IMG/VR virus record: IMGVR_UViG_3300034121_001409
Span: 11,195-75,194 of that record
Reading direction: 5' to 3' (one strand)
DNA: 64,000 nt
Source of the DNA: a virus
Of the stretch, positions 43,706 through 64,000 are shown one piece after another. How positions within the stretch are numbered: position 1 is the first letter of the stretch; the number at the start of each line of letters is the position of its first letter. The translations under genes and the position numbers were made by a program. The notes beneath the pieces are model-generated. The model ran no database searches and was not told where the DNA came from. It saw only the letters and a program-made list of their open reading frames with translations.

Positions 43706-44668
43706 ATGCATACTGAAATTATTCCTGAATCAAAAACTACAGCAAAGGTTATCTATCTTGACGCTGTTCCAAAGAGAAGACAATACCTATTAGAAAAAGC
43801 TACAACATTCTGTGAATGGAAGCAGGTTAAGTCTACCACAAGAGCAAACTACATTTCAATTATCACAGGATTTTTATCGAGAACAACTGAGCCGCTTAAT
43901 TGGCTTATGGTTCAGGATTACCTAAATATTCTTAGTGAAGAAAAATCCAAATCTACAGCTTGGATACAATCCAATGTGATAAAATCTTTTTTAGAATATT
44001 TGGAAGTTCAGTGTGATATTCAAAACGATGGTTGGAGAAAGGTTAACATAAAGAAATTTAATTACACCGGAGGCAACAAGGAATTTATAGAAGACAAATA
44101 CTTTAAGGAGGTGTACAAGATGTTTGACTTTTCTAATATGTCTGATATTCGTGATTATACTGTCTTGAAAGTTTTGCAATCAACAGGCATGAGATTATCT
44201 GAGCCTTACAACATCCGGATTAAAGATATAAAAAAAATACACGACAGCAATGCGAATCCTGTGTATGTTGTTGACTCCATTCAGAAGGGTGGTCATCGCA
44301 TGGTTGTGAAACTTCAGGCAGGAACTTTGGATGCGATAAAATTTTATCTGTCACTCAGAGGAACTTATGATAAGGATGATTATTTATTTATAGAGCATAA
44401 GTTTAAATTTAGAAAACTATACAGACCATTAAACTCATCTGTCTTCTATAAAAAAATAACACAGATGTTTAAGGATGCCGGATGCGAGAATTTTACCACT
44501 CATGCTATCCGTTATACAGCCGCTATAAAAACACTTGAAATAACCGGAGACGAAGCGATGGCTTCCCGAAAGCTGAATCATATATCCCCTAAGACTATTC
44601 AGTATTACACAAAAGGGTATCGTGAGAATATAAATGCAATCAATGACATTAACATCGAAATAAATTAG
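43706..44668 (+). CDS. Tyrosine recombinase (Xer/integrase family)
   Basis: Complete catalytic set: TGMRLSE (R), QKGG (K), HAIRY (HxxR), LNH (H), TIQYY (Y). Confidence 0.9.
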   Translation: MHTEIIPESKTTAKVIYLDAVPKRRQYLLEKATTFCEWKQVKSTTRANYISIITGFLSRTTEPLNWLMVQDYLNILSEEKSKSTAWIQSNVIKSFLEYLEVQCDIQNDGWRKVNIKKFNYTGGNKEFIEDKYFKEVYKMFDFSNMSDIRDYTVLKVLQSTGMRLSEPYNIRIKDIKKIHDSNANPVYVVDSIQKGGHRMVVKLQAGTLDAIKFYLSLRGTYDKDDYLFIEHKFKFRKLYRPLNSSVFYKKITQMFKDAGCENFTTHAIRYTAAIKTLEITGDEAMASRKLNHISPKTIQYYTKGYRENINAINDINIEIN

Positions 44669-60986: not shown

Positions 60987-61284
60987 ACAGCCGGACACAA
61001 TTGATGACATTGTGTATCCTATCGTTCTTATCTACAACTCCATTAATGAAATACCAAACTTCTGCCTTCTTGCCAAGATGACTCTTGGTGAGAAGGTTTA
61101 TTTTATCTCTCGTTAACTGCATCCTGACGATGTTATTCTTAGCGTCTCCGAGACCATCTAAAGCGATATTAAACTCCCTGACATCATAACCTGCTCTTAC
61201 TTGGAAGACATCACCCACCTGACAGATGACTCCGGTTTCTATTTTACCTTTGAATGTTAACTTGGCTTCTGAAATTGCGGTCAT
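60973..61284 (-). CDS. DUF3127-like (OB-fold, putative ssDNA-binding) protein
   Basis: REF.I...QL..DK..LL...G....V.Y.ING...HN.INC.R pattern. Confidence 0.55.
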   Translation of the reverse strand: MTAISEAKLTFKGKIETGVICQVGDVFQVRAGYDVREFNIALDGLGDAKNNIVRMQLTRDKINLLTKSHLGKKAEVWYFINGVVDKNDRIHNVINCVRLFILD

Positions 61285-61288
61285 GTTC

Positions 61289-61534
61289 TTAATCTTTAAT
61301 TTTGTATCTCTTCACTCGGATATACCGATGTGTGACAAAGTTACTATTTAAAAATCGAACTTTCCACCTCTCCCCTACATAGGTAAGCCCCTTTTGTCCT
61401 GTAAAGTATCCGAAGTGTTTATCAAACTTAATCAGCTCAACCTCTCCCTCCGGCTGCAGACACTCCTGCCAATCAAGAAAGACAGTCATGACTACATTTG
61501 GTATGAGTTTATATTTTACTCCTCTTTTACCCAT
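61289..61534 (-). CDS. Hypothetical protein
   Basis: Overlapping operon. Confidence 0.6.
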   Translation of the reverse strand: MGKRGVKYKLIPNVVMTVFLDWQECLQPEGEVELIKFDKHFGYFTGQKGLTYVGERWKVRFLNSNFVTHRYIRVKRYKIKD

Positions 61535-61844
61535 TGGATTGTAGATGTTTCATTTCCTTTTGAAGTGAGTTGTTCCATTTCCTTAAAGCATTCTTTTCAT
61601 TTATGGCATAAACATACGCCATATAAGCCTCTAATTTAATCTTTTTCTTGGAGACAGGCAAACCATCAATCAAATGTATTTCTGCCTCCACAGGAGCCTC
61701 CCTGATAGAATTATCACGTATATCAATTGCGTACACTTTCTCACCTTTATGCAGAAGTTTACTGAATAGAACCTGAGTCTGTTTTTTTGCCTGAGTCAGC
61801 CTTAATTCTTCTTGGCTCTGTGATTCTTTACTTAGCTCTTTCAT
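61527..61844 (-). CDS. Hypothetical protein
   Basis: Overlapping operon. Confidence 0.6.
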   Translation of the reverse strand: MKELSKESQSQEELRLTQAKKQTQVLFSKLLHKGEKVYAIDIRDNSIREAPVEAEIHLIDGLPVSKKKIKLEAYMAYVYAINEKNALRKWNNSLQKEMKHLQSNG

Positions 61845-62187
61845 GTGCCTGTTTTAATGATACCTGTAAATCTAATAATGTTTGGTAAATAATATTCAGA
61901 TACGCCACATCCATATCCCTCTGATAAAAGAATCGCTGCTTACCCTTATCTCTTCTGACCTTTCTCCATACAGGATTCATTGTCCATATCCTTACATCCG
62001 GATTGATTCTCATCACCCTTCTGTGTTTTATCATGGTATCCAAAGTCTTCTGAGTTAATATCCTGACAGGTCTATTATCATGCGACATTAATTTATAAGC
62101 CACCTTGTCTGTGTGTAATCTTTTGTGCAGGATTATCCTTCCTCCGGAACGGATATAATCACTTGCCTGTTTCCATACTTGTGCCAT
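61828..62187 (-). CDS. Hypothetical basic protein
   Basis: Overlapping operon. Confidence 0.6.
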   Translation of the reverse strand: MAQVWKQASDYIRSGGRIILHKRLHTDKVAYKLMSHDNRPVRILTQKTLDTMIKHRRVMRINPDVRIWTMNPVWRKVRRDKGKQRFFYQRDMDVAYLNIIYQTLLDLQVSLKQAHERAK

Positions 62188-62190
62188 TAG

Positions 62191-62667
62191 TTATTTTTTA
62201 TAGTAATTTGATTTTAATTTCTCTTCCAATTCGAATACCCACTTCCACTCCGGCAGGTCTTTCAACGCTTGTCTTTTAAACTCCCAATTGTAATGCTCAG
62301 TGGTTGTCTTAAGTACAATATTTTCCTTCAGCCCTCTGAATCTTGGATACGCTCCCTTAGTCAGTATATGAGAAAACTGATGATAGAAAAAAGGATTATT
62401 CTTGTCCACAATAAGAGGCTTACCGGATACCTGTGATATATGGCTTCTCTCTTCCCATATCAGGTCAAATAATACCTTCTCTCCTTTAGCTTTATATGGA
62501 GGTGTTTTAATTCTATTTATTCCACTATTAGGAGTAGAAGATAAAATTCCACTTGCTTTCTGTGCGCAAGATTTACAGCAGCCACAGGAGAAAATATACT
62601 GCTCAATACCACAACCGAATCCGGTGTACTTTCCTCTGCCGGAGCATATCTTTTTTTTTCTTTCCAT
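62191..62667 (-). CDS. HNH/NinG-like nuclease with N-terminal Cys cluster
   Basis: SHILTKGAYPRFR...ENIVL...EH. Confidence 0.55.
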   Translation of the reverse strand: MERKKKICSGRGKYTGFGCGIEQYIFSCGCCKSCAQKASGILSSTPNSGINRIKTPPYKAKGEKVLFDLIWEERSHISQVSGKPLIVDKNNPFFYHQFSHILTKGAYPRFRGLKENIVLKTTTEHYNWEFKRQALKDLPEWKWVFELEEKLKSNYYKK

Positions 62668-62762
62668 AACTAATTATTACAGCAAGACTAATGCTGTGGT
62701 TAATATTCGCTTTCCGGATTCACTGTCCTGCTGTAATAAGACAGTTACCAGTAATAGTTTGC

Positions 62763-63128
62763 CTACGCACGGTTTAACTCAATAAATTCATAATCGGTCA
62801 AATCAGCATCTGCATCTAAACCCCTTATATCATACCCTTTTGGATTTTTTAAGTTGACAGTTACTCCAACATCTCCGAATCTCGAAACCATCCATACTCT
62901 TACTCTTGTTCCTGCTTTACAAATGTGTTTAGTTGTATTTTCTTCGACAGGGTGCGTGCCGTTCCAAACATTCATTTCTAAATCTTTGGTGGTTTTTGCG
63001 TAAATCTCAAACGAATACCAATCTTTCAAATGTTTCTGTTCATCACGCCATTTTTGAACACATTTCAAATCCCACAACTTAAAAAATGCTGGGTTTTCTT
63101 CTCTTGTAATTTGTTTTTCTTCTTCCAT
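62763..63128 (-). CDS. Cassette-borne hypothetical protein
   Basis: 121 aa; MVSRFGDVGVT motif. Confidence 0.7.
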   Translation of the reverse strand: MEEEKQITREENPAFFKLWDLKCVQKWRDEQKHLKDWYSFEIYAKTTKDLEMNVWNGTHPVEENTTKHICKAGTRVRVWMVSRFGDVGVTVNLKNPKGYDIRGLDADADLTDYEFIELNRA

Positions 63129-63234
63129 TTATATTTCTTTTTTAAAATTCCTACGCTAAACTACTACTGGTAACACAGTATTTGCGCCATTAAAACGAGC
63201 ACAAATACTCGTCCGTTATAAGTCAGTTTGTGAA

Positions 63235-63474
63235 TTATAAGCATCTTTTACATTTTCTGCATCTCATTCCGCCAGTCCGTAAACAATAGTATATTTTTTC
63301 ATGTTCACAAACCGAACTTATAACATCAGATTTATTCAATTTATTAATTTCAGTCCGCTGCAAAATTTCCATACCTTTCTTTGCTAATAAGTAAGGTTTA
63401 GTAGTTCGTGCCAACTGTACATTATTCATCTGATAATCCATTATTTCTTCAAATATTTTCTTTATTTCTTCCAT
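63235..63474 (-). CDS. Cassette-borne hypothetical protein with C-terminal Zn-ribbon-like CxH...CxxC
   Basis: VCEHEK...CRKC. Confidence 0.6.
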   Translation of the reverse strand: MEEIKKIFEEIMDYQMNNVQLARTTKPYLLAKKGMEILQRTEINKLNKSDVISSVCEHEKIYYCLRTGGMRCRKCKRCL

Positions 63475-63512
63475 GATATATAAATTAATAAACTAAATAA
63501 ATCTGTTAATCG

Positions 63513-63740
63513 TTATGCGAAAGGTGGTTTAGGGAACTCTTTCCAACAAATTACATTTGGATAGCAACTCCATCTAAATTGAAGAAATTTACCACTTGAG
63601 TAACTACCCTCTGCCATTCCTTGTTCTGTCCATATTAAAATGCTTCGACTGTCATTTGGTGGGTTATCTGAACTAAACCACCCATCGCATAACAGCACAT
63701 TGGCGTTATTGCTTTGTTCTTCGTTTGATACTTTTGTCAT
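63513..63740 (-). CDS. Cassette-borne DUF551-like protein
   Basis: W.S....P...IL.W...V.CWKEFPKPP pattern. Confidence 0.6.
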   Translation of the reverse strand: MTKVSNEEQSNNANVLLCDGWFSSDNPPNDSRSILIWTEQGMAEGSYSSGKFLQFRWSCYPNVICWKEFPKPPFA

Positions 63741-63800
63741 ATTATTAAATTTTGTTGTTTCTAATTAAATTCTGTGGCAACAACGCCAATCTGCAAAACG

Positions 63801-63983
63801 TTAGCGGTCATTGCTTTTTAACCACTCTTTAAAGCACCAAGCATCTTCATTATTAGTAATATTTCTATATTGTTTCCACTTATCATCAAGCAACGAACCG
63901 CTAACAGCACCTATGCGTAATTTTTTAACCTCGCTTAGTACTATATCCAAAGCCTCTATCAGTTTTTTAGGTTCGTGAATCAT
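63801..63983 (-). CDS. Cassette-borne hypothetical protein
   Basis: 60 aa; the stop codon is supplied by the GTTA box. Confidence 0.55.
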   Translation of the reverse strand: MIHEPKKLIEALDIVLSEVKKLRIGAVSGSLLDDKWKQYRNITNNEDAWCFKEWLKSNDR

Positions 63984-64000
63984 ATCTTCTCTTTTACCTA

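Follow-up and report, generated by a model that had tools for sequence, protein, structure and literature searches.

The array at the end of the viral DNA analysed here most probably consists of integron-like cassettes without an integrase of their own, of a type common to Bacteroidota chromosomes and phages, in which the phage genes start within their own attC-like sites. The window, that is, the whole 64,000-nt stretch under study, corresponds to the final 64 kb of a viral record of 75,194 bp. The reading is built on the observed anatomy of the array, the covariation of the site stems, strand bias, the boundaries of the units, the opposite orientation of the genes in bacteria and the adjacency of a recombinase in bacteria and in some phages.

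A terminal repeat of 41 bp, with window 63960–64000 identical to record bases 1–41, indicates that the record is circular, and the other record end (L003) was read as the continuation past window position 64000. The gene content is that of a phage and includes GroEL, terminase, large virion proteins, DnaB and primase. The nearest terminases belong to phages of Flavobacterium, Cellulophaga and Tenacibaculum, all with less than 30% identity. With this affinity of the terminase, and with the supposed promoter motif recognized as part of the site, a crAss-like phage with a promoter motif for a virion RNA polymerase was dropped as a candidate. Sequencing runs that contain the window stretch are mainly lake-water metagenomes, and blastn of window 61000–64000 gave no match among cultured phage genomes. 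Outside the window, the phage genome carries a tRNA gene on the minus strand (L003 6686–6758, 67.5 bits).

The cassette array spans window 62667–64000 and runs on across the end of the circular record (Table 1). On the plus strand, TAAC...GTTA sites with the layout TAAC-AGCAC-arm-loop-arm-CTGCAAANC-GTTA alternate with bodies that have complementary ends. For cassette 1, the body ends GTTACCAGTAATAG and CTACTACTGGTAAC are complementary in 13 of 14 positions, and those of cassette 4, GTTAGCGGTCATTGC and GCAACGAACCGCTAAC, are complementary with one indel. Five sites are found inside 1.4 kb, and the nearest 18 kb are free of recombinase genes. Consecutive inverted repeats tile the final 1.3 kb, which contain four of the ten top-ranking inverted repeats in the whole window. 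Folding as DNA is more favourable for the minus than for the plus strand in site D (−18.4 vs −13.3 kcal/mol), site F (−14.0 vs −10.9 kcal/mol), mini-site C (−8.1 vs −5.7 kcal/mol) and site A (−10.4 vs −9.6 kcal/mol). The rank of the inverted repeats, this fold bias and the coding counts over viral cassettes given below argue against a chance origin of the hairpins. The consensus spacers are absent from sites A and C, and for the weak arms of site H the MFE fold picks another pairing. The motif ATCTGCAAANCGTTA occurs in the genome in exactly three exact copies and one variant, all within the array, and the TTA of each copy is the stop codon of a minus-strand gene. Mapping of DNA reads from three runs left 63516–63683 uncovered, which is too thin to count as evidence, and a single skip of 83 nt (63810 to 63894) has just 20 letters on one flank and is not usable either.

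Past the record end the array decays (L003 141–925). There, three tightly coupled small ORFs are placed between a good GTTA box and the half-site ATCTGCAAATCGTTA (911–925), which is adjoined by a ParB-like gene (L003 923..1777). The similarity of another contig, L210, to this stretch is confined to the first 176 nt.

Table 1. Features of the cassette array and the tyrosine recombinase of the window (window positions; L003 denotes the continuation past position 64000).
Feature	Position	Strand	Remarks
Tyrosine recombinase, Xer-like	43706..44668	+	only tyrosine recombinase of the phage; next to DnaB at the genome strand-switch point; unrelated to the array type; may serve integration or dimer resolution
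158-aa Cys-rich gene	62191..62667	-	array edge; ATG 62665-67 overlaps TAAC 62667-70 (GTTATG on minus strand)
TAAC boxes	62667-70, 63171-74, 63321-24, 63690-93, 63902-05	+	
GTTA boxes	62744-47, 63215-18, 63512-15, 63800-03	+	
Site A	62667..62747	+	short diverged attC-like site, 81 nt; arms 62674-88 / 62725-39
Cassette 1	62745..63215	+	TTA...G on top strand; body 62744-63174 + mini-site C
ORF121	62763..63128	-	cargo of cassette 1; ATG inside body
Mini-site C	63171-63218	+	48 nt; part of cassette 1
Cassette 2	63216..63512	+	body 63215-63324 (ends complementary, one indel) + site D
ORF79	63235..63474	-	ATG in site D loop; ...KSDV/ISSV... across arm and box
Site D	63321-63515	+	195 nt; 24-nt arms 63327-50 / 63482-505; 131-nt loop
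Cassette 3	63513..63800	+	body 63512-63693 (21-nt complementary ends, 90%) + site F
ORF75	63513..63740	-	ATG in site F loop; ...ANVLLCDG... across arm and box
Site F	63690-63803	+	114 nt; arms 63695-712 / 63777-794; 64-nt loop
Cassette 4	63801..64000	+	continues to L003:140; body 63800-63905 + site H
ORF83, 83 aa	63801..64000	-	start L003:93 across the record end (likelier reading); ...RIGAV/SGSL...
Site H	63902 to L003:143	+	201 nt, weak arms; rest beyond window end is L003:1-143

All four genes of the array lie on the minus strand and are thus inverted compared to those of integron cassettes. An initial annotation had described three of them as starting on the hairpin side of a TAAC box and reading through one arm and the GTTA box, and this was found as described for ORF79, ORF75 and ORF83. 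The same is true for the GTT of the box, which ORF79 and ORF83 read in frame and ORF75 in a shifted frame, and for the stop codons of ORF75 and ORF83, each provided by the TAA of the next outer box (the TTA of GTTA 63512-15 and of GTTA 63800-03, respectively). The ORF75 leader of 17 residues, MTKVSNEEQSNNANVLL, is encoded by the site, and the first Met of the body comes no earlier than residue 42; like that of ORF83, this body has no start codon of its own. In ORF79 about 50 codons are site-encoded and the C-terminal body is Cys-rich. The third gene had been assigned to a truncated fifth site with 60 aa. The start inside site H stands, with 50 codons located in the site, but a start at L003:93, giving 83 aa, is likelier than the in-window reading 63801..63983. 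With their long loops of 131 nt and about 180 nt, sites D and H each supply about 50 residues and hence the greater part of the protein, so that an entire N-terminal domain can be accommodated in the 'variable loop'. In relatives of these two sites the arms stay and the loop content changes. Searches of Pfam and PHROGs gave no match for the small ORFs of the array, and the cargo proteins matched only viral 'hypothetical' clusters in the ESM Atlas.

As judged from the open frames, translation would start at the ATGs in the loops. A contig from a freshwater metatranscriptome is identical to the ORF75 body (63511–63661) and shows a different sequence beyond the GTTA box at 63511. Coming from an RNA library, it is a weak hint of ORF75 expression and may be DNA carry-over.

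At the edge of the array, the overlap of TAAC at 62667 with the ATG of the 158-aa gene was confirmed. The label 'HNH-like' given to this gene in the initial annotation is weakly supported, with no match of the protein in Pfam or PHROGs and with HNH in 11–12% of the members of two ESM Atlas clusters. Since its two ends are not complementary, the gene is not a standard cassette. Homologues with 33–36% identity were seen in two other array-bearing contigs (L223 and L156), and the protein may therefore be an array-associated nuclease.

The sites belong to a family of about 126 nt (modal length 126 nt), which was found in at least 120 contigs of viral origin and in at least 120 genomes of Bacteroidota with the two-part pattern TAACAGCAC-N85-115-CTGCAAANCGTTA; loci were gathered by this exact pattern, so divergent site families are under-sampled, and some of the 'bacterial' matches may be prophages or mis-binned viral contigs. 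The pattern comprises 21 bases. Specificity was reached only with both parts, as a scan with a single 14-base motif gave mainly single chance matches. The bacterial matches include isolates of Pedobacter, Flavobacterium, Hymenobacter, Kaistella and Hufsiella.

When 30 diverse sites were aligned, 19 consensus pairs emerged, and compensatory changes were seen in 15 of these; one G·U pair, in the reading of the minus-type strand, is kept in 28 of the 30 sequences. The resulting architecture, TAAC / GCA-TGC / 16-bp covarying stem / GTTA, has an asymmetric internal loop (5x1). For the canonical extrahelical G and T of attC no counterpart was assignable in these sites, and an Rfam search of the sites (E<1) returned chance matches only and no matching family. 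For 106 of 126 sites among the matches listed, the 14-mer 3' of GTTA is complementary in at least 11 of 14 positions to a downstream segment that ends in TAAC; in the upstream search used as control the mode was 8–9/14. The sole mismatch is usually a G·T at position 11. Due to the symmetric pairing logic, the complementarity of the ends is blind to which strand is the 'top' one. The top strand was assigned from linkage in other contigs and from the bacterial arrays.

That the sites double as coding sequence, as proposed initially for this array, could be extended to other viral cassettes. Of the 95 distinct viral cassettes among the matches listed, 78 can be read without a stop from the box across 80% or more of the body. 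In 70 of these 78 the same frame has an ATG within the site, with a median leader of 18 codons, and in 34 of the 78 the stop codon is the outer-box TAA. Two reading frames are used for the conserved GTGCTGTTA in these cassettes (42 and 27 cases in the matches listed); this sequence is therefore conserved as DNA, not as peptide. Upstream of the ATG, the loops of the sites are rich in A/T.

The bacterial sites differ in their orientation to the genes. An ATG-initiated ORF crosses GTTA in 117 of 122 distinct viral sites compared to 49 of 123 bacterial ones. Bodies open only on the minus-type strand occurred 63 times in viral and twice in bacterial arrays, whereas those open only on the top strand were found in none of the viral and 40 of the bacterial cases (all of these counts among the matches listed). 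In Pedobacter glucosidilyticus, the genes and TAACAGCAC...CTGCAAANCGTTA share one strand and follow each other as gene, site, gene; locus L284 displays this order on the top strand. Since the same sites sit downstream of co-oriented genes in Bacteroidota chromosomes, the phage genes are the inverted ones. One site family (L030, L033, L080, L158) codes for the initial half of a signal peptide of the lipoprotein type (MKTK...AFAYVLL), which is completed by the body 3' of the GTTA joint (VAVIFCGC).

To define the unit of movement, 108 parsed units were compared pairwise, and the following counts refer to the matches listed. Wherever two units have the same body (22 pairs), their 5' sites are also the same or similar. 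Site and body alone are shared, with unrelated flanks, in eight pairs. No pair shares only the body and the downstream site, and none shares only the upstream body and the site with a differing body. In the informative pairs similarity stops exactly after TAAC on both sides, and identical units abut unrelated sites with TAAC as the only common letters at the joint. Comparison with the collected viral loci by blastn showed cassette 2 in L203 (89% identity, HSP limits 63214–63515) and cassette 3 in L119/L123 (85.5% identity, HSP limits 63511–63804), both between unlike flanks; site H alone recurs in L035 with 96.6% identity. Contigs of three other lake metagenomes leave the window at boxes, namely at 63171, 63219, 63688/63690, 63791/63797 and 63807. 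The recurrence of a gene with its own site as an exact unit without similarity of the flanks supports one of two alternatives raised in the initial annotation, crossover at the plus-strand GTT with whole genes moving in antisense orientation, which is also favoured by the inversion relative to the bacterial arrays. On the basis of these sequence comparisons, the data favour a movement of whole cassettes with their own site, for which the crossover would take place somewhere within the outer TAAC/GTTA box.

A candidate for the enzyme is found next to bacterial arrays. In three bacterial genomes the array is immediately preceded by the best integron-integrase-like gene of the genome, which points in the same direction; in one of them, Pedobacter glucosidilyticus, this is a 481-aa tyrosine recombinase (L360:7046–8491). 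The Pedobacter enzyme reaches 191 bits with TIGR02249 (cut-off 265) in two pieces that skip model positions 181–241, and its best model is XerA-like (208 vs a cut-off of 220). By these profile scores the array-adjacent enzyme is Xer/XerA-like and without the segment where the IntI-specific insert lies. Homologues with 36–65% identity occur at 13 bacterial and 10 viral loci among the matches listed. The bacterial ones are all upstream of the site and co-oriented with the top strand in all but one site comparison; at the viral loci they are all on the opposite strand and on the same side of the array.

In this phage, no recombinase of the array type was found. The recombinase of the window (Table 1), 19 kb away from the array, shows just 24% identity to the array-adjacent type over the catalytic domain, and the array of the window is therefore regarded as integrase-less. 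The protein scores 23 bits with TIGR02249 and has no homologue among the other collected loci. In several loci (L174, L185, L182/L184, L197, L198/L225 and others) a loose motif TACCnGCTAnnCGC... follows the last TAAC of the array, on the side of the recombinase gene where one is present. This motif could be an attI-like platform site.

From these features the following course can be proposed for the integron-like array. On the top strand, a cassette would consist of TTA-body-TAAC-AGCAC-arm-loop-arm-CTGCAAANC-G, and the single-stranded bottom strand would fold each site into a hairpin. The crossover in the outer box would then be the work of an Xer-like tyrosine recombinase that the host or another phage provides in trans, by the presumed chemistry between G and TTA on the top and between TAA and C on the bottom strand. 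Unlike in bacteria, the phage cargo gene would be carried on the bottom strand, which places the cassette's own site at the 5' end of the gene. The loop would contribute the A/T-rich leader region, the ATG and the first 17–50 codons. From there, translation would pass through one arm and the inner box, continue in the body and in many cases terminate on the TAA of the following outer box. With the start supplied by the site and the stop by the box, each gene would carry its own translation signals whatever its neighbours.

The other alternative of the initial annotation was a crossover at the minus-strand GTT that combines leaders and C-terminal domains into chimeric proteins. The swaps of heads and bodies that it predicts do exist. 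Separate searches with heads and tails revealed changes of partner at the junctions between VL and LC, DV and IS, and AV and SG, and homologues of ORF75, ORF79 and ORF83 are thus not always full-length. The ORF75 leader recurs with 100% identity in five contigs (L018, L091, L202, L207 and L211), each time with a different body, and in a large protein collection the ORF75 body is combined with at least four other leaders and the leader with at least three other body types. For ORF79, one protein has the same head with another tail (P0013) and two have other heads with the same tail (P0014 and P0015); the piece shared among these relatives, KLNKSDV, is the arm of the site. In L035 the same 50 site-encoded residues as in ORF83 are followed by SSSTDY and a stop. 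Over all sites, 47 pairs with 93–98% identity are joined to unrelated bodies, with the break exactly between GTGCT and GTTA. These swaps, and the ORF75 and ORF83 bodies without their own start codon, would be expected if a recombinase regularly crossed at the inner box, between G and TTA of the minus strand, and had the shuffling of heads and start-less bodies as its main function. Nevertheless, we consider such a programmed generator of chimeras improbable. No pair retains upstream cassette and site with a new body, compared to the eight that share only site and body, so regular crossover at the minus-strand GTT finds no support in the pairs, and each recent identical unit has head and body together. 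In chromosomal integrons such as those with the Vibrio repeats, similar sites on unrelated genes are the rule, with no inner crossover. The short leaders are low-complexity peptides rich in N, E and K and show no hint of an independent function, and homologous recombination within near-identical sites would leave the same pattern. Heads and bodies may be re-assorted at cassette formation, or by homologous exchange within similar sites. A tentative extension, to which we give a limited chance, is a shuffler on two levels, in which whole cassettes move and site-encoded heads are in addition re-attached to start-less bodies at GTTA, either by the recombinase or by the way cassettes are made. Export signals and whole N-terminal domains of about 50 residues, the latter seen in sites D and H, would then be among the heads, and the recombination site would act as an exchangeable first exon from which new phage proteins are built.

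A different explanation would do without any site-specific recombinase. The hairpins could serve primarily as expression modules, in the sense of promoter, translation-initiation or RNA-stability elements comparable to the promoter stem-loops of T4-type phages, with shuffling as a by-product of homologous recombination among these repeated modules. The phage sites always face as the genes do and carry the start codon, their loops are A/T-rich upstream of it, the wobbles are of the G·U type on the mRNA-sense strand, and this phage is without an array-type recombinase, all of which fits such modules. In bacterial arrays, however, the same sites are found in opposite orientation, downstream of the genes and beside a tyrosine recombinase. 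The TAAC that identical units have in common at the joint is too little for homologous exchange, the body-specific complementary ends of 14–21 nt have no role in an expression module, and the host-type promoter consensus TTTG-N17-23-TAnnTTTG does not occur in the array. Taken together, this explanation appears very improbable to us, and we retain the integron-like array with genes starting in their own sites.

Integrons are the textbook system of gene capture, and their sites are regarded as non-coding and located at the 3' end of the cassette. The array described here would add a widespread relative in Bacteroidota and their phages that works with a different, Xer-like recombinase. The phage version would reverse the design, as the site heads the gene and codes for the start and the N-terminus, and every cassette would then be expressible wherever it is inserted. 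Such a system could explain the trade of small accessory genes among these phages. The cargo probably consists of host-takeover or anti-defence genes, and the site together with the GTTA joint provides a defined DNA module to find and test them. The reading also bears on the question of how integron cassettes are born.

According to literature, clusters of attC sites without integrase (CALINs) are found in virulent phages (Qi et al. 2023, PMC9892861), almost no complete integrons were detected in Bacteroidetes with IntegronFinder 2.0 (PMC9024848), and fused cassettes are on record (PMC4670013). The literature searched contained no description of the present site family or of genes starting inside attC sites.

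Some other systems share single features with the array. Similar to IS200/IS605 elements, strand-specific DNA hairpins are present and the units are flanked on both sides by the same tetranucleotide. In contrast to them, there is no Y1 transposase, and the arrays alternate stems of site and body beside a tyrosine recombinase. Promoter-early stem-loops (PeSLs) reportedly flank small ORFs in the hyperplastic regions of T4-type phages, as described by Arbiol et al. in 2010, and are thought to work via homologous recombination. They resemble the present sites as repeated hairpin modules between small phage genes, with expression signals and modular shuffling of genes, but are not known to be common to host chromosomes or to have a recombinase partner or cassette-specific complementary ends. 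In attI1 of class 1 integrons, ORF-11 and ORF-17/18 are short translation aids upstream of the first cassette. Here too, a recombination site with a start codon and a short ORF aids or starts the adjoining cassette gene. The ORFs of attI serve the first cassette only, and cassette fusions are rare accidents; in the phage arrays each cassette's own attC-like site holds the start, in frame in about 90% of the matches listed.

The closest correspondence is with the integrons themselves. As in attC, the site is an imperfect palindrome with outer (R) and inner (L) stems, an unpaired spacer and a variable loop, so that the R''-L''-loop-L'-R' architecture is found with a conserved structure and a covarying sequence. 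One strand folds better than the other, and in the present sites the G·T wobbles are at fixed positions. The cassette ends are complementary across the body, each cassette consists of a body and its own site, and the unit limits fall in the GTT/AAC box, the exact crossover nucleotide aside. The arrays are composed of small orphan genes with near-alike sites on unrelated genes, the repeats of about 120 nt correspond to those of sedentary chromosomal integrons, and a tyrosine recombinase lies beside the arrays in chromosomes. Different from integrons, the complementary cassette ends extend over 14–21 nt with a fixed G·T wobble instead of 7 nt. The recombinase is Xer/XerA-like by its profile matches and appears to lack the additional domain specific for IntI, and the phage genes, instead of being promoterless top-strand ORFs that precede their attC and are read from Pc, are all inverted, start in and read through their own site. 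The system is thus integron-like and departs from integrons in two of their defining properties, the IntI-type integrase and the orientation of the genes.
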